DNA of 64,000 nucleotides from Myxococcota bacterium (GCA_036337945.1 JAYZDF010000029.1:19040-83039); one strand, 5' to 3'; positions 3,357 through 42,294 are shown, counted from the first letter of the stretch. Notes: generated by a model from the letters alone, not told the origin. Numbers and translations are program-made.

Positions 3357-6300
3357 ATGAAAATCAAGCGACTAGAAATCCATGGCTTTAAGAGCTTCGC
3401 CGACAGAACCGTTCTGAATTTTGGCGAAGGGATCACAGGCGTTCTTGGCCCGAATGGATGCGGCAAATCGAATATCGTTGATGCACTGCGTTGGTGCATG
3501 GGCGAACAATCCGCAAAGCACCTAAGGGGTGGCGCGATGGACGACGTCATTTTCGCTGGGTCGGAATCCAGAGGCCCTATGGGAATGGCAGAGGTTACTA
3601 TCGCATTTAAAAACGATGGCACGAACTGCCCTCCGGAGTACAAGGAGCTGTCGGAAATTAGCATTACCCGTCAACTTTTCCGTGATGGCACGTCTAACTA
3701 CATGGTCAATAAGCTCCCGGCACGCCTTCGAGATATCAATGAATTGTTTCTAGGAACAGGTATCGGTCGGAATTCATACGCGATCATCGAGCAGGGACGA
3801 ATTGGTCTGGTTGTAACATCGAAGCCAGACGACCGGCGCGCACTCATTGAGGATGCCGCAGGTATCTCGAAATATAAACTCAGGCGACGGCAAGCAGAAC
3901 GTAAACTTGATGCTACTCACCAAAATCTTCTTCGCGTCACAGACATTATTACCGAACTCAAGAAGCGGATAGGAACGCTAGAGCGACAAGCAAAAAAAGC
4001 CGAAAAATACAAAGCCATCAAGACAGAGCTTCGAGAACTTGAGCTGTGCGCGGCAGTACATCGCCATCTTGAGCTATCGTCACTTTCAGGACTTTCTCGG
4101 ATCATCGTAAATGACAAGAAACAAGAGATAGGTGATCAAGAAGAGTATATTCTCAGCGAGGAACTTCGCATCGATGAGGCCAAAGATAAGCTCGCCGAGG
4201 AAGAAGAAGAGCTCCGAGCGACAGAATCACGGCTTCGTGAACTAGAGCAGAGCTTGGCCGTCGGAGAAAAAAACGTAGAGCACCTCGAGCGAGAACTTAC
4301 CGGTCTCGAAGCACGACTTGTGGAAGCCAAGGCGGAACGTTCTTCTCTGGAAAATCAGGTCATAGATGCCAGAACCGAACGAGAAGAACTGTCTGAAGTC
4401 GCAGACAAACTCGAGAACAGCGAAGGTAACGAAGCGCAGGAACTTGAGCAAAAAGTGGATGAGCTTGCCGCTCTAGAAAAGGAAATCAGCGATCTCGATT
4501 CAAATCTCGAAGCCCAAAAGCACCAATTGATCAGGTGTCTTACCGAGATTGCTCAAAACGAGAAAGACCTCGAAAACAATATTTCAAAGCTCAGAAGCTT
4601 CGACGAGCGCTTAGAAAAACTATCGGCAGAGAAATCCGAATTGAGTAAATTATCGCTCGACGTCTCGAAAGATCTCGAAACGACCACCAAAAAACTAGAC
4701 CAAAACCGGCAGCTTATTTTTTCAATTGATGGTCAAAAAGAAGCACAACAAGCGCAGCTGCATAAAGATCAGACTGATTACGCGGAGAACGAAAAAGAAC
4801 TTCGCGCGCAGCTCGAAGAAATGATGGACCACCGCTCGCGGTTGAACTCACTTCAGACCATTCGAGCAAATTACGAAGGGTGCGCAGACGGCGTTCGCGC
4901 GGTCATGCAGCGTAGACAAGAAGAAACGGAAGTTGAGAAACTTCACGGCCTAGTTGCCGATGTACTCACAACCGAACAGCGGTTCGAGACCGCAATCGAA
5001 GCGGTTCTTGGAGAGCGACTTCAGTACGTTATTGTTGATACGCAGTCGGATGGCGTCGAATCCATCGGTTATCTTCGGGAGGCCAGCCAAGGCCGCTCAA
5101 GCTTTATTCCTCTCGACCTTCGAGAGGACCACGTATCCTGGGCGCCTCGCAATTCGAGTCGACCACCTGGTGAATCGATAAGTGACCGCCCTCCCCCTGA
5201 GGAAATACAACAAGCAGCGCTTGAAGCACAGGCCGCTCTGCTCGAAAAGCCGAAGACAGATGTAGCGACAAGCATTCCTTCTTTACTGCCTCACCCCGAA
5301 GCCATTTGGGATGAGGAAATCGACATATGGCCCAACCTAGAAGCCGATGGAGTCTGCGGGAAGATGGTCGACCTTGTAGAGGCCAAACCTGGATTTGAAC
5401 AAGTGGCGCGAGTACTACTGGGAGATGTTGTTATTGTCGACGATCTCGAGAGCGCGCAAAACCTATGGCTGAGTAACGGACACAGAAAAACACTAGTAAC
5501 ACTCGATGGGATTGTCCTTGATCCCGTAGGAGTAATCACTGGCGGCTCGACCGACGGTATCTCCACGGGAATGATGGCACAAAAGCGAGAAATCGAAGAA
5601 CTCGTCGCTCGAATCCAAGAGCTGGAGACCGGAACGAGTATAAGACAGACTAAACAAGCAAAGCTTAAATCGAAAATAAGCAAAACCGAAGCTTCGTTGA
5701 AGCAGCTATCTCGAACTAAGCATGAAGAAGAACTCGCATTCGTTAGGCTCGAAAAAGATCAAAAGCTTCACCGTGACGCACTAGATATGCACAAGCGTTC
5801 TGTTGAGAAAATTCAAGACGAACGAGACGGCATAGAATCGAAACGAAAAGAATGCGCAGAAGAGCTAGAGCTCGCCAACTCAAGGGCTGAAACACTAGCG
5901 GAAGCCCGGCAGGATGCAGAAACAAAAATTCAGTCTGCGACCGACGAGTTCGCGAAGTCGAAAACTCGTGCACAACTACTTGCAGATCTCGTAACGGAAC
6001 TGAAAGTCACCGTTGCAGCGAATACTGAAAAACGTGAAAACTCACGACGAAGCGTAAGCAGGATTGATGCCCTCATCCGAGAACTTTCGGCGCGCATAGA
6101 AAGGCTCGGCAGCAACGTGGAGTCAGGAAAATCAGAAGCTGAAACTCTAAAAGAGACCATCAAAGAGGCCTATTCACAGGGAACCGAAACAACAGGCCTC
6201 GCCGAAACGCAAAAAGAAAAATACGAACTCTCTGCGAAAGCGTACAAGGAACATTCCGCCAAAGTCCGCGAAGAAGAAAACGAAATCCGAACGAAACGTT

Positions 6301-7133
6301 CCGCGATCGACACGCTGAAAGATGCAATGAACGACGCAAACATTAAGTTACGTGAGTACGAAGTTTCGCTGGAAGCACTCCACGATCAAATCTTTGACCG
6401 TTACCAATTAGAGGTAATGGATATAGTCCACGATTATCATCTATCTCCTCGGCAAAGCGAAGAAGCGCAAAAGCATCGCGAAGAACTCCGGAAAAAGATT
6501 GAAAAAATGGGCGAAATCAATCTTACGGCAATTCGAGAATTTGAAGAAGTCAAAGAGCGCTACGATTTCTTGTATGCGCAGGAACAAGACTTACAAGATG
6601 CGATATCTCAACTTAGAGCCGCGATTAAGAAAATTGACGTCACGAGCAAAGACCGGTTCCTCAAGGCGTTCGATTTGGTTAAAGAAAAGTTTGAGCTTGT
6701 TTTCCCACGGCTGTTCAACGGAGGAAGAGCAACACTTCTCATCACGGACCCGAGTAATCCACTAGAATCCGGGATTGAGATGATGGCCCAACCACCAGGT
6801 AAGAAACTACAAACTGTAAATCTTCTGTCTGGTGGAGAAAAAGCGTTAACTGCTATTTCTCTAATCTTCAGTATCTTCCTGATCAAACCAACACCGTTCT
6901 GCTTATTGGACGAGGTTGACGCGCCACTTGATGACGCGAATGTGGGGCGATACAACGAGATGGTCAAAGATATGGCTCAGCTGTCCCAATTTATTTTGAT
7001 CACGCACAACAAGCGTACAATGGAAATTCCTGATCGGCTCTACGGTGTAACGATGGAAGAACCTGGAATTTCTAAGCTTGTTGGTGTCGACCTCAAGCGC
7101 AAACAAAAACCAGCCGTAAAGGCGGCGTCATAG
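3357..7133 (+). CDS. smc: chromosome segregation protein SMC
   Basis: N-terminal Walker A (GPNGCGKSNIVDALRWCMGEQSAKHLR), long coiled coils, a hinge, and the C-terminal ABC signature LSGGEKALTAISLIFSIF plus Walker B LLDEVDAPLD. Length is 1258 aa. Confidence 0.9.
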   Translation: MKIKRLEIHGFKSFADRTVLNFGEGITGVLGPNGCGKSNIVDALRWCMGEQSAKHLRGGAMDDVIFAGSESRGPMGMAEVTIAFKNDGTNCPPEYKELSEISITRQLFRDGTSNYMVNKLPARLRDINELFLGTGIGRNSYAIIEQGRIGLVVTSKPDDRRALIEDAAGISKYKLRRRQAERKLDATHQNLLRVTDIITELKKRIGTLERQAKKAEKYKAIKTELRELELCAAVHRHLELSSLSGLSRIIVNDKKQEIGDQEEYILSEELRIDEAKDKLAEEEEELRATESRLRELEQSLAVGEKNVEHLERELTGLEARLVEAKAERSSLENQVIDARTEREELSEVADKLENSEGNEAQELEQKVDELAALEKEISDLDSNLEAQKHQLIRCLTEIAQNEKDLENNISKLRSFDERLEKLSAEKSELSKLSLDVSKDLETTTKKLDQNRQLIFSIDGQKEAQQAQLHKDQTDYAENEKELRAQLEEMMDHRSRLNSLQTIRANYEGCADGVRAVMQRRQEETEVEKLHGLVADVLTTEQRFETAIEAVLGERLQYVIVDTQSDGVESIGYLREASQGRSSFIPLDLREDHVSWAPRNSSRPPGESISDRPPPEEIQQAALEAQAALLEKPKTDVATSIPSLLPHPEAIWDEEIDIWPNLEADGVCGKMVDLVEAKPGFEQVARVLLGDVVIVDDLESAQNLWLSNGHRKTLVTLDGIVLDPVGVITGGSTDGISTGMMAQKREIEELVARIQELETGTSIRQTKQAKLKSKISKTEASLKQLSRTKHEEELAFVRLEKDQKLHRDALDMHKRSVEKIQDERDGIESKRKECAEELELANSRAETLAEARQDAETKIQSATDEFAKSKTRAQLLADLVTELKVTVAANTEKRENSRRSVSRIDALIRELSARIERLGSNVESGKSEAETLKETIKEAYSQGTETTGLAETQKEKYELSAKAYKEHSAKVREEENEIRTKRSAIDTLKDAMNDANIKLREYEVSLEALHDQIFDRYQLEVMDIVHDYHLSPRQSEEAQKHREELRKKIEKMGEINLTAIREFEEVKERYDFLYAQEQDLQDAISQLRAAIKKIDVTSKDRFLKAFDLVKEKFELVFPRLFNGGRATLLITDPSNPLESGIEMMAQPPGKKLQTVNLLSGGEKALTAISLIFSIFLIKPTPFCLLDEVDAPLDDANVGRYNEMVKDMAQLSQFILITHNKRTMEIPDRLYGVTMEEPGISKLVGVDLKRKQKPAVKAAS

Positions 7134-7142
7134 TCGATAGTT

Positions 7143-8603
7143 TTAGAGGTAGTTTTCTAACTCCTTCTTGTATTTGTTCATTACTCTCCTGAAATTCGAG
7201 CGGTCCAGACCGGCCTTGCGAGCAGCCTCAGAGATATTCCCCCCTGCCCCCCTCAATAAACCACTGACATATTCTAATTCGAAACGTCGAACTGCTTTCT
7301 TTTTAGCGTCTGCAAAATTCAGCCCCAAATCAACTCCATGGCCAGAAGGAGGCGGCGGCGGGATTGACATCGCGACGGAGTTTCCTGTTTGTTCACGGAA
7401 TGACGTGGACAAGTCTTGCAGTTTCACAGAAGAGCCTTTCGCGAGAACAACAGCGGCCTCAATGACATTTTCAAGCTCGCGAACATTACCAGGCCAATCG
7501 TATTCAACAAATGCAGTCATGACCTCGGATTCAAAGTCATGTAGTTCCTTTGAAGACCGTTCACTATATTTGGCGAGAAAATGCTTCGCTAACAGAGGAA
7601 TATCTGACTTCCTCTTTCTCAATGGAGGCAACTGTAGAGGTATGACATTTAGTCGGTAATACAGGTCATTTCTAAAAGAGCCATCTTCCACAGACGACAA
7701 TAAATCAACATTTGTTGCAGCAATCACTCGCACATCAACTTTCCGTGGAGCGCTCTCTCCTACTCTGGTAATTTCTGCTTCTTGCAAAACGCGAAGTAAG
7801 CGAATCTGGGCCGATGACGTCATCTCGCCGATTTCGTCCAGAAATATGGTGCCGCCGTTAGCTGCTTCGAAATGTCCTATTCGAGTTTGATTCGCACCCG
7901 TAAAAGCGCCCTTCACATGACCAAAGAGTTCAGACTCCAATAGCGCCTCGGGAATAGCGCCACAATGAACAGGAATCATTGGCCCTTCATTCCGCTGACT
8001 TCTTCGATGTATTGCCCGAGCGATGAGTTCTTTACCTGTTCCTGATTCTCCTTGAATCAGAACAGATGCGTCAGAAGGTGCAACGCTCTCAATAATATCA
8101 AAAACCTGGTTCATTGCTGACGAACGACCTATGAGGTCTTCGAACTTTTCAGACATTGCAACGTGGCGTTCTAAGAAGTCATTTCGAAGACGAAGATTGT
8201 AGCGGTCAAGCGAGTTACGAACCGAGTTTTCTACATAGGCGTCGCTTTCGAAAGGACGTTTGAGCCAGGTGAAAGGAGGTTTACGAGACGAAGTGCCACC
8301 ACCATCTAGCGAAGATGAGAGCATAATAACTTCGGCTTGAGGTGACACTTCATCAAAATATCGACACAACATCTGACCGTTCATCGATTCTAAATCCTCG
8401 GAAAATATGGCCAACTGAAAATCACTCGCTGCAGCTCTTCCTATCGCCTCCGAAGCGCTTTGGCATTTCACAGCATCGCAATTAGCCTTTTCAACAATCT
8501 CTGTGAGCCGGTTCAATTCCGTCAAATCATTACTGACAATTAGAGCGCGGTGTTTTTTCGCGACTGCATTCACGAAAAACGAGGGACGCGGAGCATTAGA
8601 CAC
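7143..8603 (-). CDS. sigma-54-dependent Fis-family response regulator (NtrC-like)
   Basis: N-terminal receiver-like domain. The AAA+ sigma-54 activator domain carries GESGTGKE, ESELFGH (GAFTGA loop present: KGAFTGA) and a C-terminal HTH (NISEAARKAGLDRSNFRRVMNKY). Its stop overlaps the start of the upstream histidine kinase by 8 nt. Confidence 0.85.
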   Translation of the reverse strand: MSNAPRPSFFVNAVAKKHRALIVSNDLTELNRLTEIVEKANCDAVKCQSASEAIGRAAASDFQLAIFSEDLESMNGQMLCRYFDEVSPQAEVIMLSSSLDGGGTSSRKPPFTWLKRPFESDAYVENSVRNSLDRYNLRLRNDFLERHVAMSEKFEDLIGRSSAMNQVFDIIESVAPSDASVLIQGESGTGKELIARAIHRRSQRNEGPMIPVHCGAIPEALLESELFGHVKGAFTGANQTRIGHFEAANGGTIFLDEIGEMTSSAQIRLLRVLQEAEITRVGESAPRKVDVRVIAATNVDLLSSVEDGSFRNDLYYRLNVIPLQLPPLRKRKSDIPLLAKHFLAKYSERSSKELHDFESEVMTAFVEYDWPGNVRELENVIEAAVVLAKGSSVKLQDLSTSFREQTGNSVAMSIPPPPPSGHGVDLGLNFADAKKKAVRRFELEYVSGLLRGAGGNISEAARKAGLDRSNFRRVMNKYKKELENYL

Positions 8604-17462: not shown

Positions 17463-17723
17463 TTACGCGGCGTCTTCGGACGGACGCTTGTTGGGGTTGA
17501 TGGGAATGATGACGACACTCTCTTGTTCCTCAGGTTCTTCATACCGAGACTCTTCGTCATACGACGACGGAATAGGCTCCCGATAGACGGGAATCTCAAG
17601 ATGTATACGAGGCCGTGATGATTCTCGCTCGCGTTGCTCTTCCTCGCGCCTAATTGCATCTATTATGTAAGCATCTAGCATCTTTTCGTCCTCTACTTCG
17701 GCAAAACACCTAATAAGCACCAC
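17463..17723 (-). CDS. small acidic hypothetical protein
   Basis: An 86 aa ORF rich in Glu/Arg/Pro with no recognisable domain. It lies upstream of exbB on the same strand. An alternative-frame ORF (17357-17659) overlaps it and is less likely to be real. Confidence 0.3.
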   Translation of the reverse strand: MVLIRCFAEVEDEKMLDAYIIDAIRREEEQRERESSRPRIHLEIPVYREPIPSSYDEESRYEEPEEQESVVIIPINPNKRPSEDAA

Positions 17724-18096
17724 GGAAATTCGTTATGTCCTATATCGGTCCGCTTTCGTTTTTTGGTGACTCTTTTTCATCTCTCACTCAAAAAACGTCC
17801 CATTGACCCAATAAATTCCACCCGTCGGAGTGCTGTGACCAACTTCACATCAAGAGCGAAAAGTTCGCCCTCTATATTACTAGTCGGCCGTAGCCACGAA
17901 ACTGTGACCTAAAATCGGTAAAGGCACCAATTTTTGTCCGTCAAACAAATTTCTCGCCGGTTTACCCTTTTCGGGACGAGCGAGACATAGAGTGCCCTGA
18001 AATTTTCAATCATATGTCTCAACATGCGGTTTTTTTTGATTTTCTTTGGGTTAGCCCATAGCGAAGGAACAAAAATCGAGGTACGAGAACATCAAT
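17724..18096. promoter_or_regulatory. divergent intergenic region of about 370 nt upstream of the BMC operon
   Basis: A long AT-richer non-coding gap separates the minus-strand small ORF/exbB-exbD-tonB cluster from the plus-strand BMC operon. A ribosome-binding-site-like GAGG precedes the 18097 ATG. No specific operator was recognised. Confidence 0.3.
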
Positions 18097-18723
18097 ATGT
18101 CCCAAGGTGTGAAGCTCAGAGCCTACCAATTTCTCGATAGCCTGCAACCACAACTCACGTCGCATATTTGCACAACTTGCCGTGGGTATTTTCCGGTTCC
18201 AGGAATGGCGTCCCTATTCGTAGAGATCGCGCCGGGAATGGCCATCCATCGCCTGATCGACCGTGCCCTCAAAGCCACGGACGTTCAGCCTGCTACCTTG
18301 ATCGTGGAACGAGCGTTTGGGATGTTGGAGATTCATCACAACGATAAGGGCCAGGTCTTAGCTGCGGGCGCGGCAATCCTTGACCAACTGGGGGTATCCG
18401 AGACAGACCGCGTGAAGCCGCGCGTTGTATCGAATACCATTATTCGCTCTATCGAGCCTTACCATGCCATGATTGTTGATAAAATTCGTTTTGGTTCGAT
18501 GATCAGCCCGGGTGAATCGTTGTTAGTGATGGAGACACAACCCGCAGCATACGTTGCCTTCGCAGCGAACGAAGCTGAGAAAGCCGCGAATGTTACCCTC
18601 GTCGACGTAACACCATATGGTGCGTTCGGGCGACTTTACCTAGCTGGAGACGAAGCAGAAATCGACTCCGCTGCACAAGCCGCAGAAGCTGCCATTGCAA
18701 GCATCAGCGGAATAGAACAATAA
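18097..18723 (+). CDS. bacterial microcompartment shell protein, tandem-domain BMC-T, with ~35-aa N-terminal extension
   Basis: This 208 aa protein has two BMC-like segments ([25 protein letters not shown]...[11 protein letters not shown] and [31 protein letters not shown]...[26 protein letters not shown]). Both resemble BMC domain cores: an alpha/beta fold with a D/E-A-x-x-K-A helix. The subtype (permuted PduB/EutL-like versus PduT-like) cannot be decided by eye. Confidence 0.6.
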
Positions 18724-18759
18724 CCCAAATTTAAACTGTAACGATAAGAAGGAAGAACG

Positions 18760-19062
18760 ATGTCGGAAGCACTCGGAATGATCGAAACAAAAGGTTTCGT
18801 AGGAATGGTTGAAGCCTCAGATGCCATGGTTAAAGCAGCCAAGGTCGAACTCGTAGGTTATGAGAAGATTGGTGGAGGTTTCGTAACCTCAATCGTACGT
18901 GGCGATGTTGCAGCGGTGAAAGCAGCCGTAGAGGCAGGCGCGCGAGGCGCTGAACGCGTTGGCGAATTAGTGAGTGTTCATGTCATTCCACGCCCACACG
19001 CAAATATCGATGCCGCATTGCCGCTAGGTCGAGCACCTGCCGCATCAGGAAAAGGCAAGTAG
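18760..19062 (+). CDS. bacterial microcompartment hexamer shell protein BMC-H (PduA/EutM/CcmK family)
   Basis: It aligns nearly end-to-end by eye with PduA: [59 protein letters not shown]...VHVIPRPH. Confidence 0.9.
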
Positions 19063-19065
19063 AAC

Positions 19066-19359
19066 GTGCTCCTTGGCAAGGTCATTGGGACCGTCGTTGC
19101 CAGCAAGAAAGAACCTGAAATCGAAGGGCTAAAACTGCTCGTAGTGAAAGGTTCAGAGCTGGACGGACAAGCCAGCGGTCCAATTGTTGTTGCGGTAGAT
19201 GCCGTTGGTGCAGGCGTAGGCGAACTCGTTTTGTACGCAGCGGGCTCTTCGGCGCGTCAGACAATTCAAACCAAAGACAAGCCCGTGGACCATGTCGTCA
19301 TGGCGATTGTCGACCAAGTCGAGGTCGAAGGTTCACTGCTGTATAACAAAGATAACTAA
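19066..19359 (+). CDS. bacterial microcompartment vertex pentamer BMC-P (EutN/PduN/CcmL family)
   Basis: A 97 aa protein with the EutN-like pattern ([12 protein letters not shown]...LKLLVV.....[31 protein letters not shown]). Confidence 0.9.
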
Positions 19360-19378
19360 TCAAAGCGGGTCCCACTAA

Positions 19379-20842
19379 ATGGTTCAGATAGATGACGCAA
19401 AAATTGAAGAGATCGTGGGTAGGGTCGTCGATCGACTTGTAGGAAGTACTCCACCTTCTTCGTCGTCGGAGCCTTACTGTGCACCGGCTCCCCCAAAATA
19501 TGATCCAGGACCTGCTATTCATACCTCGGGTCTATCCGGTGTTTTCGGTGATCTTGACTCTGCGGTTGCTGCCGCTCACCGGGCGCACGCCGCCCTCGAA
19601 GCCTCTAGCTTAGAGCTACGGTTTAAAATCATCGAGGCTTTCCGGGATTGCGGTCGTCGAGAGGTCGCTAACCTCGCCCGAATGGCGGTTGAAGAGACCG
19701 GTCTTGGAAGATACGACGACAAGATAAATAAGAATCTGCTCGTTATTAATAAGACACCCGGGCCAGAGATTCTAAAGCCTGTTGCCGTATCCGGCGACAA
19801 CGGCCTCATGCTTACTGAACGTGCTGCATATGGCGTTATTGGCGCTATCACGCCGACGACCAACCCTACCGAGACGATCATTTGCAACGGCATTGGTATG
19901 TTATCGGGTGGTAATGCGGTGGTCTTCAACGTTCACCCAGGCGCGAAAAACGTTTGTAACTACCTCGTCGACAAGATCAACAAAGCAAGTGTTGCTGCTG
20001 GCGGGCCTGACAATCTAATTTGTAGCATTGGAGAGCCAACTATTCAGTCAGCGCAAGCCCTCATGACGCACGCAGGTATCCGACTATTGGTGGTTACTGG
20101 CGGACCTGGAGTCGTGAAAGCCGCCATGAAGTCAGGCAAACGAACTATTGCCGGAGGACCTGGCAATCCGCCCGTTGTAGTGGACGAGACGGCTGATATT
20201 CTTCGAGCAGCAAAAGGTATTGTCTCGGGCGGTAGCCTCGACAACTGCATTGTCTGTACGGCAGAAAAAGAGATTTTGGCCGTTGCTGAGATTGCTGACC
20301 TCCTAAAAAGGCAGATTTGTGAAAATGGTGGCTACGAAGTCAAAGGTCCGAACATCAGCAAGCTGCAGCGACTGGTTGTCGCTGAGGATGGCCTCCACCC
20401 GAACAAAGAATGGGTGGGTAAGGACGCCTCGAAGATTCTATCGGCGATCGGCATTACGCCGCCTAGTGGTGTGAGAACCATAATCGTAGAGGGCGATGAA
20501 CAAAGTCCCTTCGTGCAAGGAGAGTTACTCATGCCTGTGCTGGGCTTTGTTCGTGTCCCCAGTGCAGAAGAAGGCATAGCTATGGCCAAACGCGTCGAAC
20601 ATGGCTTTGGACATACTGCCGCGATGTACTCAACCAACATCAATAATCTTCACGCAATGGCTCGTTCCATCAATACCTCGATTTTCACAAAGAACGCGCC
20701 AACTTATGCCGGTCTTGGACTTGGAGGCGAAGGCTATACCTCCTTTACGATCGCCTCTCCGACCGGTGAAGGCCTCACTAATCCAATCCATTTCACACGC
20801 GAAAGACGATGCACACTAGTCGACTCATTCCGTATCATTTAG
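19379..20842 (+). CDS. CoA-acylating aldehyde dehydrogenase (PduP/EutE-like) with N-terminal encapsulation peptide
   Basis: ALDH fold with the catalytic-Cys motif SLDNCIVCTAEKE (compare FDNNLPCIAEKE in PduP) and the glycine-rich NAD site (GGPGNPPVVVDETADI). The N-terminus has a short amphipathic helix (DDAKIEEIVGRVVDRLVG), then a Ser/Pro-rich linker (STPPSSSSEPYCAPAPPKYDPGP), as in BMC encapsulation peptides. Confidence 0.9.
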   Translation: MVQIDDAKIEEIVGRVVDRLVGSTPPSSSSEPYCAPAPPKYDPGPAIHTSGLSGVFGDLDSAVAAAHRAHAALEASSLELRFKIIEAFRDCGRREVANLARMAVEETGLGRYDDKINKNLLVINKTPGPEILKPVAVSGDNGLMLTERAAYGVIGAITPTTNPTETIICNGIGMLSGGNAVVFNVHPGAKNVCNYLVDKINKASVAAGGPDNLICSIGEPTIQSAQALMTHAGIRLLVVTGGPGVVKAAMKSGKRTIAGGPGNPPVVVDETADILRAAKGIVSGGSLDNCIVCTAEKEILAVAEIADLLKRQICENGGYEVKGPNISKLQRLVVAEDGLHPNKEWVGKDASKILSAIGITPPSGVRTIIVEGDEQSPFVQGELLMPVLGFVRVPSAEEGIAMAKRVEHGFGHTAAMYSTNINNLHAMARSINTSIFTKNAPTYAGLGLGGEGYTSFTIASPTGEGLTNPIHFTRERRCTLVDSFRII

Positions 20843-21513
20843 CCTTCACCCTCCTCGTTTTTTCTGGTGTTGCCTGCAGCAGTGACCGATACGTCGGCTC
20901 CCTGGGCAAGTCAGGTATGTACGCAAACCGTGGTTATGGCGTTGTTATACAACTCAACGATCGTGACCTACTGAGTCGGTGGGAATATATCGACCCGCAC
21001 AAGATCGACATCTACAAGGAATCCGTTCGCCCTAGCCTCACCCAAGAAACGATAGATCTAAATGGTGATGGCACTCTTCATCACGACGAAGTTGTCGTGC
21101 AGTGGAAACCAAACTTCAGACTCGTTCATAAAGATGTCGCAACTTCTCGCATTGATCTTGGGGTAGATATTCTCGGGGGGCGAAATAAAGCTGCAGATTT
21201 TGGTGCCTATGTTCGAGCTACCGTGAAGAATGAATTTGGTGTCGAAACCAGCAAAGGAGATTGGAAGGCTTTACGGCTGGGCCCGGACTTTAGGGCGTAC
21301 TCAACCCGGCTCAAAGAAGATGGCCTATTACTCGCAGCCATCGATCAAGGTAACTTTTCTGCGGAAGAAGGCGCTGTGCGCCGACAAATTGTATGGGCTC
21401 GGCTGAAGTCATTAGAACTTACAGAGCAAGAAGAAAAGGATTTTGGATCATTTTTGCGCTCGCTGCTCCTGAATTCTAAGGCGGGAAGGCAAACAACCTG
21501 GGAGAAATATTGA
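20809..21513 (+). CDS. hypothetical protein encoded inside the BMC operon (possible signal peptide; EF-hand-like DxNxDG loop)
   Basis: A 234 aa protein with no family recognised. The N-terminus (MHTSRLIPYHLAFTLLVFSGVAC) looks like a signal or lipoprotein peptide. An alternative start at Met37 (20917) would remove it. It has a DLNGDGTL motif. Its start overlaps the AldDH stop by 34 nt. Its stop overlaps the downstream BMC-T start (ATGA). Confidence 0.35.
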   Translation: MHTSRLIPYHLAFTLLVFSGVACSSDRYVGSLGKSGMYANRGYGVVIQLNDRDLLSRWEYIDPHKIDIYKESVRPSLTQETIDLNGDGTLHHDEVVVQWKPNFRLVHKDVATSRIDLGVDILGGRNKAADFGAYVRATVKNEFGVETSKGDWKALRLGPDFRAYSTRLKEDGLLLAAIDQGNFSAEEGAVRRQIVWARLKSLELTEQEEKDFGSFLRSLLLNSKAGRQTTWEKY

Positions 21514-22121
21514 TTCAGTCTACGCCACTAATGGTCGACGGTGATGCCATCGCCGTTTTTGAAATAGCGTCAATTGCCCGTGGCGTTGTTGTATTGGATC
21601 AAATGGCAAAGCGTGCCTTCACTGAAATCATATCGTCTAAAACCGTCTCCCCTGGCAAATATCTCATTATTTTGACCGGGTCTGTTGCGGAAATAGAGGA
21701 AGCAAGTTTTGCCGCGCTTGAATCGATGCAAGATGATCACATCGACCATATTATCCTACGAGACCCTCACCCTCTTTTGCGAACAACCTTCGCAAATAAA
21801 CTCGAACCCAACTTCCGAGAGTCTGTTTCGATATGCGAATTTTTTACACTGAGTAGCACGATTCACGCGCTCGACGTAATTCTGAAGAGCTCCGGCGTTG
21901 AAGTTATTGAGTTACGTCTGGGCGCAGGGCTAGATGGTAAAGGAATCTTTACCGTAACAGGCTCTTTGGATACGATTGAAGCCGCATGTGACTTAGTAGA
22001 AAGTAATATTGACCATACGAAGATTCATCGCATTGAGAAGATTGCCCAAATCCACGAAGACCTGCCCAAGCATTTACTTGGCGCCGAGCTTCCCGCTTCG
22101 CGCGGCACACCGTCTAAATAG
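21510..22121 (+). CDS. bacterial microcompartment tandem-domain shell protein BMC-T, PduT-like, lacking the Fe-S ligand cysteine
   Basis: This 203 aa protein aligns by eye with PduT across both domains. Domain 1: AIAVFEIASIARGVVVLDQMAKRAFTEIISSKTVSPGKYLIILTGSVAEIEEA versus PduT [53 protein letters not shown]. Domain 2: HALDVILKSSGVEVIELRLGAGLDGKGIFTVTGSLDTIEAA. PduT Cys38 corresponds to Ser47 here (TCC at 21648-21650). Confidence 0.8.
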   Translation: MIQSTPLMVDGDAIAVFEIASIARGVVVLDQMAKRAFTEIISSKTVSPGKYLIILTGSVAEIEEASFAALESMQDDHIDHIILRDPHPLLRTTFANKLEPNFRESVSICEFFTLSSTIHALDVILKSSGVEVIELRLGAGLDGKGIFTVTGSLDTIEAACDLVESNIDHTKIHRIEKIAQIHEDLPKHLLGAELPASRGTPSK

Positions 22122-22323
22122 CGGAAACGGTTTTTCCGTGCACAAAAACTAAAAATGCCATCGATGGGCGTCGACTTCCTTCTCGCATCGCAAAGTGAAT
22201 AGCATCTAGACTCCAACCCAACGCGGCCATCTCATTGAGTTTCTCCTCAATGGTATCATCCGTTACGGTAGAGAGCTCGATAACCTTATAAGATGGATTG
22301 TCTTTCGTATCAGTCGTTGTCAC
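22114..22323 (-). CDS. DUF4177-like small protein
   Basis: A 69 aa protein with the pattern YKVIELS....D..EEKLNEMAALGWSL typical of DUF4177. It is the last gene of the minus-strand hem operon. Its 3' end overlaps the BMC-T 3' end by 8 nt in convergent orientation. Confidence 0.45.
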   Translation of the reverse strand: MTTTDTKDNPSYKVIELSTVTDDTIEEKLNEMAALGWSLDAIHFAMREGSRRPSMAFLVFVHGKTVSAI

Positions 22324-23047
22324 AGCTGCCCCCTACTTTATCGAGAAGAGCTTCAATCAGCAATTCAAGCTCTGGATTGGCTGGACAGACCAGGGAATTG
22401 AGCCCCAGTTTTTCGGCATGCTCTCTCGTATTTTGACCGATAACTCCTACAGTTCGATAGCTCAAATATCCAAGGGCCGTGTCATGAGAACGGAAGAAAG
22501 AGTCCAATGTTCGCCCAGAAAAAAACAGCACATCCGTTATCGCCGGATCTGGCAGAGCGTCATGTCTGCACATCTCAATGGAGTAGATGGCTAATGTACT
22601 GACCGTTACTCCTTGCTCTATGAGTGGCGACACAAAAGAAGCCTTCGCCTGTTTTGCTTGAGGGCAAAACACTCGCAATTCCTTCATGTCTGCCTCAGCC
22701 CTAGAGAACCAATCAAGGATGCCTTCTCCATCAAACCGGTCCGGCACAAAGATGTCTCGCTCTTGCAACCATTGCCGTGCGGCGGCAGCCGTACGTCCGC
22801 CCACTGCGAGTATTTTCACGTGTTGAGGAGGTACCACATGCTCAGTCTTCATATAGCGAACCGTGTTCGCAGAAGTGAGCACTAAATAATCAAAATCTTC
22901 CCAAGAAGGCCATGTAACGGAAATCCGACGTGTCTGTATGTACGGAATGACTTCAACTTCGGCTCCGTGTGCTTCCAAAAGTCGTGTGACTGCTATGGAC
23001 TGTTCTCTTTGTCGAGTAACAAGAACTTTTCTGCCTACTAAACTCAT
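22310..23047 (-). CDS. hemD: uroporphyrinogen-III synthase
   Basis: A 245 aa protein with the HemD-like two-lobe pattern (VLVTRQREQS..LLEAHGAEV..PYI; VLFFSGRTLDSF). It lies immediately downstream of hemC in the operon. Confidence 0.7.
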   Translation of the reverse strand: MSLVGRKVLVTRQREQSIAVTRLLEAHGAEVEVIPYIQTRRISVTWPSWEDFDYLVLTSANTVRYMKTEHVVPPQHVKILAVGGRTAAAARQWLQERDIFVPDRFDGEGILDWFSRAEADMKELRVFCPQAKQAKASFVSPLIEQGVTVSTLAIYSIEMCRHDALPDPAITDVLFFSGRTLDSFFRSHDTALGYLSYRTVGVIGQNTREHAEKLGLNSLVCPANPELELLIEALLDKVGGSCDND

Positions 23048-34387: not shown

Positions 34388-35335
34388 TTACAGCTTCAGG
34401 CGAATCGCCTTGTGAAAGTTGGAGAATCGGGCGGGAAGTCGACCTGGTTGTTCTCCGTCAATATCTAATAAAACGTTAGCCTCATCTCTAAAGGGGATTG
34501 CCTGAATCATTTTTCCGCGAGAAGAACGCACGCTTTGCCAGTGAATCGCGCGCCCAGCGTATAAATCGGAGGTCTTGAGCACTTCTTTCATACCTGCTCG
34601 AATCTGAGTCACTACATCGAATTCGCCGTCGTCAATCTTCGCATTGGGAGCCATATGCATCCCACCGCCAAAATATTGCCCATTAGCTATCGCAACCGTG
34701 ACAAGTGGTTCATCAACAAAGACTTCATCATCTACACTTACACGAACATGTTGGCGTCGGTATGAGGCGAGCGCGCGTAAAGTATTTATATAAAAGGAAA
34801 TGCGTCCACCGAGAGCCTTTGACCCTTTGTTGATTTTATCTGCCACCACTCCAGAAAGACCAAAACTCGCAATATTAAGAAAAGCCTGTCCTTTTGGTTG
34901 TCCTCGGTGGTCGACAAATTCGACCCAACCGAGATCACATGGCTGCGTCTTCTCTCCAGCTAAATGGGCGACAGACCCAGGAATAGTCCCGGGTAAATCA
35001 AACAATCGTGCAAAGTCGCCACCGGTTCCTGATCGTACCGCACCAATAATTATATCGTCTTTGACAAGTCGAGGATTACTGCCGTCTTTCTCGCTTTCAA
35101 ACAAGCCATTTACAACCTCGTTCATTGTGCCATCGCCACCTACAGACACAATCATTTCATAGCCGTCCATCACTGCTTGCTTTGACAAACGAGTCGCGTC
35201 GCCTGGGGCTTTCGTAAATGCGAAATCCCATTTCGTCAGAACTTTATTTAACGCTCGCTGTAGCTCCGGCCAATATCTTCCCGTCGCGCCACTTTGGCTC
35301 GCTGGATTAACAATTACGTAGGTAAAGTAACTCAT
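34388..35335 (-). CDS. diacylglycerol/lipid kinase family protein (YegS/BmrU-like)
   Basis: DAGK catalytic-domain pattern (YVIVNPASQSGATG...VSVGGDGTMNEVVNGL...GGDFARL). Confidence 0.75.
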   Translation of the reverse strand: MSYFTYVIVNPASQSGATGRYWPELQRALNKVLTKWDFAFTKAPGDATRLSKQAVMDGYEMIVSVGGDGTMNEVVNGLFESEKDGSNPRLVKDDIIIGAVRSGTGGDFARLFDLPGTIPGSVAHLAGEKTQPCDLGWVEFVDHRGQPKGQAFLNIASFGLSGVVADKINKGSKALGGRISFYINTLRALASYRRQHVRVSVDDEVFVDEPLVTVAIANGQYFGGGMHMAPNAKIDDGEFDVVTQIRAGMKEVLKTSDLYAGRAIHWQSVRSSRGKMIQAIPFRDEANVLLDIDGEQPGRLPARFSNFHKAIRLKL

Positions 35336-41010: not shown

Positions 41011-42294
41011 ATGCATCAAGCCAATCATGCATTCAAAGTCGTCTATCGCTCGTTGCGAAAACTCAATGAAGACCACCAGTCACACATCACGCACGGCGGT
41101 ATTCTCGTTCCCAAGCCCCGTGAGATACCAGCCGTAAACACAATCTGCCTTCTTCGCCTTGAACTCCCTAGCGGTGCGTATTTCGATTTCCCTTCCCGAG
41201 TAGTTCACCAGCTACCAGGTCAAGGTTTCATCGCCGCGTTCGAACCAGGCGCGTCAAACAGTCAGCATGCACTCGACGAGCTCATTCTTACAGAAGACTT
41301 CAAAGCAGCACTACGAAACGAAGCTAGCATTGAGCTCATAGACACAGAAGTTGAAAAGTTTGATCCTGAGGAAAGCAGTCGCAACTCCGCCGACGAACTT
41401 GGTGACGACACCTTAGATGATGACACCGACCAGAGAGTAACGGCGGCTCTCTCAGAGGAAATGACGGCGGCACAGGCAAACGCGAACGAGTCAGCAAAGA
41501 TAGCCAATCCGGTCCCTGGTGAAACATTGATTGTATACGTCGTCAACTTTGCCACGCTCCTAGACTTCATTCCTCACACCGAAGACTACTCAACCAATTC
41601 AATCATTACACTCAACGTGCCCAATGAAACAGCAAAGCCAGGAACGGCGTCCGAAGTTCGCATTAATCTACCCGGCAAAAACACTTTTCAAATATTTGGT
41701 CGAATTAAGTCCGTTGAAGCGCACAAGGTAACCATCAATGTAAACTCCGATGACCCAAACTTTATCGGAGCCATACATTTTCCACGAACGATGCGTGGTC
41801 AAAAACGACTTGCGAGCGAACAAGAGGCGCATCGTGCGCCAATAAAAATCACTCGCATGCAAACAGAGATTGCCAGTAACGACGAAGAAAAAATGCCGTT
41901 ACGTCGTCGACTCCAGCGAATGACAATGGATGACAAGATAAATCTCGCCCTGTCAGGCGATCGTGAAGCTCGAATGGCTTTAGCAACGGATGGCAACAAA
42001 GCCATTCATCATTACCTTTTGAAGAATGCCAAGATCTCTATGGATGAAATCGTAATGATGGCACGATTGGCTACTCTGAATCCTGATGTCCTGAAAAAAA
42101 TCGCCGAAAATCCAGCCTACACGCAAAATCCTCAAGTCGTTAAGAACCTTGTCTTCAACCCTAAAACGCCTGCAAAAAATGCGGTTCGCCTCATTGATCG
42201 TTTGCCACGAAACGTTTTGAACATGATTGCCAAGCGCCCCAGTATGAATCGAGCTCTCGTCGCTGCAGCTCAGAAGAAACTTGGCCGCAAATAG
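41011..42294 (+). CDS. hypothetical protein (possible degenerate PilZ-like N-terminal modules; C-terminal helical repeats)
   Basis: A 427 aa protein starting 10 nt after hutH. It has two beta-rich modules and a C-terminal region with repeated helical units (NPDVLKKIAENPAYTQNPQVVKNLVFNPKTP). No confident family. Confidence 0.3.
   Translation: MHQANHAFKVVYRSLRKLNEDHQSHITHGGILVPKPREIPAVNTICLLRLELPSGAYFDFPSRVVHQLPGQGFIAAFEPGASNSQHALDELILTEDFKAALRNEASIELIDTEVEKFDPEESSRNSADELGDDTLDDDTDQRVTAALSEEMTAAQANANESAKIANPVPGETLIVYVVNFATLLDFIPHTEDYSTNSIITLNVPNETAKPGTASEVRINLPGKNTFQIFGRIKSVEAHKVTINVNSDDPNFIGAIHFPRTMRGQKRLASEQEAHRAPIKITRMQTEIASNDEEKMPLRRRLQRMTMDDKINLALSGDREARMALATDGNKAIHHYLLKNAKISMDEIVMMARLATLNPDVLKKIAENPAYTQNPQVVKNLVFNPKTPAKNAVRLIDRLPRNVLNMIAKRPSMNRALVAAAQKKLGRK

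Follow-up and report, generated by a model that had tools for sequence, protein, structure and literature searches.

A predicted encapsulation module at the N-terminus of the aldehyde dehydrogenase in a Myxococcota shell-gene operon

Background

Does a compact cluster of bacterial microcompartment (BMC) shell genes in an uncultured Myxococcota genome come with cargo of its own, and if so, which part of the cargo would direct it into the shell? We addressed this question in a 64,000-nt stretch of DNA from a Myxococcota bacterium (GCA_036337945.1, JAYZDF010000029.1:19040-83039; the whole stretch is referred to as the window), where shell genes flank an open reading frame (ORF) for an aldehyde dehydrogenase (AldDH) of 487 aa at positions 19379-20842 on the + strand. 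Judging from the sequence comparisons reported here, residues 1-51 of this enzyme very probably constitute an N-terminal encapsulation module, consisting of a helix and a linker, of the EutE/PduP (type II BMC AldDH) kind. A layout of this sort had been put forward in an original prediction made from the sequence alone, and our translation of 19379-19530 is identical to the one it gave.

Encapsulation peptides (EPs) are defined as short terminal amphipathic helices, with a poorly conserved linker between them and the functional domain (Kinney 2012; Aussignargues 2015, PMC4594438). A catalogue of 2015, drawn up from 362 sequences, covers the N- or C-terminal EPs of BMC aldehyde dehydrogenases and describes the EUT1-type AldDH, the class of EutE, as carrying an N-terminal EP (Aussignargues 2015, PMC4594438). 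A catalogue of 2021 reports an N-terminal EP on type II AldDh (IPR012408) and describes the HO (Haliangium ochraceum) locus type, the function of which is unknown (PMC8217296). N-terminal EPs on this class of enzyme are already described (Aussignargues 2015; Sutter 2021) and the putative EP of the window AldDH is an ordinary one; the unexplained parts are a Cys-Pro patch in its linker and a CxxC motif in an adjacent shell protein.

Results and discussion

A 51-residue extension ahead of the catalytic fold

The AldDH cannot have a longer N-terminus than the one analysed here, because the ATG at 19379 is immediately 3' of an in-frame TAA (19376-19378) and the stop-to-stop segment begins at 19379. 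The start codon and residues 1-5 (MVQID; 19379-19393, + strand) form a cap preceding the helix; 52 of 60 homologues have Leu or Ile at position 4. An identical protein is on record at NCBI from a Myxococcota metagenome-assembled genome (MAG), under the name 'aldehyde dehydrogenase family protein'.

The CoA-acylating aldehyde dehydrogenase core, delimited by phmmer, the NF011927 profile and the catalytic Cys, comprises residues 52-487 and the stop codon (19532-20842, + strand). Residues 52-486 match the PduP-type structures 5jfl and 4c3s with E ~1e-130 (phmmer), homology to solved aldehyde dehydrogenase (ALDH) structures begins at residue 52-53, and the Pfam Aldedh match begins at residue 58. 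NF011927, the NCBIfam profile of the EutE/PduP subfamily, scores the protein at 626 bits against a cutoff of 403, its alignment starting at residue 6. The catalytic Cys293 (codon 20255-20257) is invariant in 60 homologues, and in the alignment its counterpart in 5jfl is the Cys of CvAEKE. By sequence, the enzyme belongs to the EutE/PduP subfamily of acylating ALDHs with its catalytic Cys retained (type II BMC AldDH; the class appears as IPR012408 in PMC8217296). Since its C-terminus (...CTLVDSFRII) stops with the core, where EutE and 5jfl also end in the alignment, and the 51 extra residues lie at the N-terminus, the EP is placed at the N-terminal and not at the C-terminal end.

The concern that homologous AldDHs outside BMC loci might share this N-terminus is not borne out, as AdhE-type and other acylating ALDHs lacking BMC annotation do not have the extension. 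AdhE, the acetylating ALDH 5j78 and the acylating SSADH 8cei, none of which is annotated as BMC-associated, align only from AldDH residues 57-68 and carry just 7-44 residues of their own ahead of the point where the core alignment begins (query residue >=57), leaving them with no counterpart of the extension. NCBIfam families without BMC annotation likewise match the AldDH from residue 58 or later.

An amphipathic helix conserved across phyla

AlphaFold2, run on the AldDH with a 60-sequence alignment and followed by DSSP assignment (mean predicted local distance difference test score, pLDDT, 83.8), predicts a helix at residues 6-21, a 16-aa block just after the start (DAKIEEIVGRVVDRLV; 19394-19441, + strand) with pLDDT values of 68-76; the ALDH fold of the model begins at about residue 55. 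The original prediction had expected an amphipathic helix at residues 5-19. A helix is indeed what the secondary-structure assignment returns at this N-terminus, and only the numbering needs correction, as the segment that had been quoted (DDAKIEEIVGRVVDRLVG) covers residues 5-22 (18 aa). Residues I9, I12, V13, V16, V17 and L20 line up on one apolar face. The Eisenberg hydrophobic moment of residues 7-21 (AKIEEIVGRVVDRLV) is 0.668, the maximum of all 15-mers in the protein and within the top 0.46% of 19,061 15-mers from the 52 window ORFs taken as genes (shuffle p 0.018). An E11-R15 (i, i+4) pair resembles the residues reported to form a salt bridge in metabolosome EPs (PMC12339742).

Taken by itself, the amphipathicity of the N-terminus could still be due to chance. 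Two other window proteins, encoded by the ORFs at 41011-42294 and 34388-35335, have a higher N-terminal moment, and the apolar spacing pattern of the AldDH helix is found 4 times in 19,789 aa of window proteins. The case for an EP is therefore carried by position, conservation and context. The ORF at 41011-42294 was considered as an EP-bearing candidate in its own right and rejected, as inspection revealed no low-complexity linker behind its N-terminal amphipathic segment.

These chance figures, together with the general abundance of amphipathic helices and the presence of a lipoprotein gene in the same operon, could be taken to mean that the helix is a membrane anchor, some other localisation signal unrelated to BMCs, or an amphipathic stretch that arose by chance and targets nothing. 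We consider this scarcely credible: the motif is found in 74 of 80 orthologues from many phyla, nearly always beside shell genes, the helix aligns with the N-terminal 19 residues of EutE, and it is net acidic or neutral, whereas membrane anchors are usually cationic.

Conservation was assessed in 120 database homologues (58-100% identity), in a 60-sequence alignment and in 80 genome loci spanning Myxococcota, Sericytochromatia, Nitrospinota, Anaerolineae and other groups. The helix motif Φ-x-x-Φ-V-x-x-V-Φ-x-x-Φ is retained in the 74 loci just mentioned; four of the six that do not match are truncated at contig ends, and the remaining two (L046 and L076) have divergent versions. Within the 60-sequence alignment the apolar positions are strongly conserved (I12 90%, V13 95%, V16 98%, V17 80% and L20 77%), R19 is always R or K, and the polar positions 7, 10, 14 and 18 are variable. 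At the codon level, 6-8 of 18 helix codons differ synonymously from the three loci L001-L003 and the non-synonymous changes are conservative, indicating that the region is translated and constrained. When the 54-residue N-terminal module was used alone as a database query, it returned one match, a 58-aa fragment. The pattern xΦxxΦVxxVΦxxΦ, very well conserved across phyla as it is, could act as a search pattern.

Likeness to EutE and PduP

Escherichia coli K-12 EutE is 45% identical to the window AldDH from end to end (BLASTP), with window residues 4-22 paired with EutE residues 1-19 (IDDAKIEEIVGRVVDRLVG versus MNQQDIEQVVKAVLLKMQS). Both proteins belong to the NF011927 subfamily and both have A-[IV]-H ahead of the G-V-F at which the core starts. 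Only 4 of the 19 helix residues are identical, the conserved feature being the apolar pattern. EutE differs in having no 17-residue linker insertion with the Cys-Pro motif, and the window locus, unlike the eut operon, lacks ethanolamine lyase and the other Eut enzymes. At the same time, the order eutM-eutN-eutE in E. coli (L081, 7349-9451), that is BMC-H, BMC-P and AldDH, is the same as in the window at 18760-20842. As this order is common to the E. coli eut operon, the HO-type locus and 72 of 80 related loci, it suggests an old conserved three-gene module.

The EP of Salmonella PduP (residues 1-18), the best studied one, is similarly N-terminal and consists of an amphipathic helix of ~18 aa followed by a linker. 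In a register derived from published residue numbers rather than from a tool alignment, PduP L6-E7-x-L9-I10-x-x-I13-L14 corresponds to window I9-E10-x-I12-V13-x-x-V16-V17 (i, i+3, i+4, i+7, i+8). PduP residues L6, E7, L9, I10, I13 and L14 have been reported as important for encapsulation (PMC4594438) and self-assembly (PMC12339742). The two differ in the position of the charged pair (E7-R11 in PduP, E11-R15 in the window AldDH) and in shell type (PDU versus HO).

In overall organisation the window locus resembles that of the HO microcompartment, a compact locus with AldDH as the sole enzyme and, as described for type II AldDh, with an N-terminal EP (PMC8217296); the HO AldDH is likened here by its description, and a literature search for Hoch_5813 gave no matches. 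An additional lipoprotein gene distinguishes the window locus from HO.

The AldDH has a short terminal segment that is predicted to be helical, an amphipathic and conserved apolar face, a linker, alignment to EutE residues 1-19, an extension that is missing where BMC annotation is missing, and linkage to shell genes. This bears out the proposal that its layout is that of PduP/EutE-type encapsulation peptides.

A linker with a conserved Cys-Pro patch

The linker is 30 aa long in the window AldDH (residues 22-51) and 16-98 aa long across orthologues; the window value falls inside the published range for AldDH linkers (4-91 aa, mean 28; PMC4594438). The stretch quoted for it in the original prediction, where it was called disordered and Ser/Pro-rich, corresponds to residues 23-51 (29 residues with 8 Pro and 7 Ser). 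The composition and the lack of secondary structure hold for residues 22-51, but a purely featureless linker does not, since residues 31-48 contain conserved positions. Its first part, residues 22-30 (GSTPPSSSS; 19442-19468, + strand), is the variable one, with low pLDDT, high column entropy, frequent gaps, and differences in both length and sequence between homologues. The AlphaFold2 model gives pLDDT <50 for residues 22-34 and 58-69 for residues 35-50, with no secondary structure in the latter.

The second part, residues 31-48 (EPYCAPAPPKYDPGPAIH; 19469-19522, + strand; Cys34 at 19478-19480), stands out in the alignment columns as a Cys-Pro motif conserved within the clade (C34 83%, P36 82%, P38 80%, P39 70% and P45 87% in 60 homologues). 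Most of it falls within the 17 inserted residues that EutE does not have. The window and loci L001-L014 and L016 all have one Cys with x-Pro behind it, despite differing surroundings, and the other loci lack it; the linker Cys is restricted to loci without a downstream pair of BMC-P genes. Other matches in the loci to C[AG]PxPP, a strict form of the motif, were discarded, as all of them are in off-frame ORFs of GC-rich loci.

The distribution of the linker Cys is mirrored in the neighbouring shell protein BMC-T(dp) (18097-18723, + strand), a homologue of HO-5816 (E 4.5e-82, 64% identity). In loci with the linker Cys this protein has the motif H-I-C-[TS]-T-C-[RK]-G, which in the window reads HICTTCRG (CxxC at residues 25-28, with C25 and C28; 18169-18180). 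The same site in other loci and in the PDB chain of HO-5816 has [FY]-x-[GA]-x-T-[AS]-x-G, with FIGKTARG in HO-5816. Both features occur together in the window and 10 loci and are both missing from about 35 loci; the exceptions are L020, with CxxC and no linker Cys, and L025, with CxxS and no linker Cys. The CxxC is also missing from L028, a Kofleriaceae locus which is the most H. ochraceum-like among those compared, and the linker Cys is missing there too.

A bipartite targeting signal is conceivable for this Myxococcota clade, with the Cys34-x-Pro/polyproline patch complementing the helix as a second shell dock or as a redox-sensitive cross-link. Such a reading would account for the 80-87% conservation of C34, P36, P38 and P45 amid a variable flanking linker, for the insertion of the patch relative to EutE, and for its co-occurrence with the CxxC of the adjacent BMC-T(dp). 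We nevertheless regard it as improbable. Only one clade has the two features, so that common ancestry is enough to explain why they co-occur with no functional link between them; L020 has the CxxC and lacks the linker Cys; the patch has no defined structure in the AlphaFold2 model; and we found no precedent, with cysteine going unmentioned in PMC8217296 and PMC12339742. The more specific idea that the linker is more than a passive tether, and that the patch and the CxxC could form a redox- or metal-dependent cross-link, either between cargo and shell or between cargo molecules, has in our estimate about one chance in ten of being correct. If true, it would make assembly or activity of the organelle respond to redox state. 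Both motifs may be of practical interest for the widely used HO shell system, in which loading by native peptides has been reported as inefficient.

What the module would do

By analogy with PduP and other EPs, we infer a luminal localisation of the AldDH and two binding steps for the helix. The amphipathic helix of residues 6-21 would bundle with its counterparts on further copies of the AldDH, so nucleating a cargo aggregate; its apolar face would dock on the lumen-facing surface of the shell tiles; and the H, T and P shell proteins encoded next to it would close around the enzyme. The 30-residue Pro/Ser-rich linker would serve as a tether keeping the helix apart from the catalytic fold. EPs have been reported to self-associate into condensates (PMC12339742, PMC7221423) and, in the case of PduL and PduA, to bind in the groove that separates shell tiles (PMC11157265).

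Several observations weigh against assigning residues 1-51 to a standard encapsulation module. First, native EPs have been reported, among others by the group working with the HO shell, to be often inefficient in loading heterologous cargo into shells (PMC6056538, PMC6787980). Second, the linker only partly agrees with the classical definition: it is 30 aa long, variable in length and of low pLDDT, yet residues 31-48 are conserved within the clade, which puts the Cys-Pro motif outside the picture of a poorly conserved linker. Third, no protein other than the AldDHs was found to have the helix motif in any stop-to-stop segment of the window and the 80 loci (two hidden Markov models were used, one built from 106 close homologues and the other from 74 loci plus homologues), where several cargo proteins with similar EPs would be usual. 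Finally, the AldDH of L021, a Schekmanbacteria MAG (5980-7476), has the same helix and a 40-aa linker with no shell gene within 6 kb on each side; this gene may be a satellite gene or a relic.

In view of the inefficient loading, either cargo-cargo or cargo-shell contacts may carry more weight, and it is here that a different role for the helix has to be considered. The helix might be mainly a tag for cargo-cargo aggregation, or condensation, which bundles AldDH into a core, contact with the shell being made, for example, through the Cys-Pro motif, the enzyme surface or another protein. The EPs of PduP and PduD form condensates and trimeric bundles in vitro (PMC12339742) and co-aggregate in vivo (PMC7221423), and both the poor performance of native EPs on heterologous cargo (PMC6056538, PMC6787980) and the second conserved element in the linker would fit. 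However, the PduP residues required for encapsulation sit on the same apolar face (PMC4594438), EP binding between shell tiles has been reported for PduL and PduA (PMC11157265), and the two roles are not mutually exclusive. We therefore see a helix acting mainly in aggregation as a possible though unlikely account, and continue to favour an encapsulation module of the EutE/PduP kind.

If the AldDH is indeed such cargo, then at least one enzyme encoded in this compact shell operon, from the genome of an uncultured member of the Myxococcota, is built to be encapsulated, and for that reason the locus probably makes a working HO-type metabolosome and not orphan shell proteins. The step from luminal cargo to a functional microcompartment, also taken in the original prediction, is plausible, as the genes for the H, P, T(s) and T(dp) shell proteins are intact and the catalytic Cys293 is retained. 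Against it, the window has no signature enzyme, phosphotransacylase or alcohol dehydrogenase, which is usual for the HO type.

The shell operon and related loci

The AldDH gene is part of a block on one strand in the order BMC-T(dp), BMC-H, BMC-P, AldDH, lipoprotein-like gene and BMC-T(s), in which genes overlap or are separated by 3-36 nt. A promoter and terminator scan of 17600-22400 gave counts no higher than in shuffled sequences, so the argument for co-transcription is one of gene spacing only. Ahead of the AldDH, BMC-H, a hexamer shell protein (18760-19062, + strand; Pfam BMC 4.7e-30), is 79% identical to HO-5815, and BMC-P, the pentamer or vertex protein (19066-19359, + strand; Pfam EutN_CcmL 1e-27), lies 19 nt upstream of the AldDH and is 62.5% identical to the HO BMC-P in 5v74. 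Behind it, BMC-T(s) (21510-22121, + strand) is a tandem-domain shell protein similar to PduT and to HO BMC-T1, with two BMC domains (2e-23) and matches to 3nwg and 5dih. Because its shell proteins have their nearest counterparts in the H. ochraceum model shell (79% for H, 64% for T(dp) and 62.5% for P; best PDB hits), the locus is, on sequence grounds, of the HO type.

HO loci encode shell proteins that include a BMC-T(dp) similar to CsoS1D/CcmP, and have a characteristic triplet of BMC-P genes, two of which in type I are located in a satellite locus together with an aldolase (PMC8217296). One BMC-P gene and no aldolase are present within the 64-kb window, in keeping with that description. A phmmer search with the six locus proteins detected no further shell genes or satellite locus in the window, and Pfam scans of 30 further window ORFs detected no aldolase, PduL/phosphotransacylase or alcohol dehydrogenase; the other window genes are housekeeping ones (hem genes, tRNA synthetase, IF-2 and others).

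Of the 80 related loci, 72 have BMC-P immediately in front of the AldDH and another 6 end at a contig edge; in one locus the arrangement differs and shell genes flank the AldDH on either side. The shell-less AldDH of L021 is surrounded by genes for PEP-CTERM proteins, panD, prmC and infB. Many more distant relatives (L015, L022, L024 and others) have BMC-T(s) and two BMC-P genes right after the AldDH (for instance at 7398-8514 in L024), and none of these are directly behind the AldDH in the window and its closest relatives, in agreement with the published split of HO loci into type I and type II. In the type II-like locus L024 nothing BMC-related was seen beyond the BMC-P pair.

The lipoprotein-like gene (20809-21513, + strand; 234 aa), which we do not count among the targeting components, overlaps both the AldDH and the BMC-T(s) genes. 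It has no Pfam or NCBIfam match and encodes a lipoprotein signal with a lipobox (LVFSGVA|C). L001, L002, L003 and L005 each have a homologue at the corresponding place that retains the lipobox, with PRYVGS..R..Y.NRGYG behind it. An exported lipoprotein within a shell operon is odd.

In the xPGKY loop of BMC-T(s), residue 47 (21648-21650) is a Ser, giving VSPGKY, as opposed to the Cys of VCPGKY in 3nwg, the aligned protein from Desulfitobacterium. We take the Cys of this loop in PduT-type proteins to be a ligand of a [4Fe-4S] cluster, and with Ser in its place the window BMC-T(s) is probably cluster-free at the pore.

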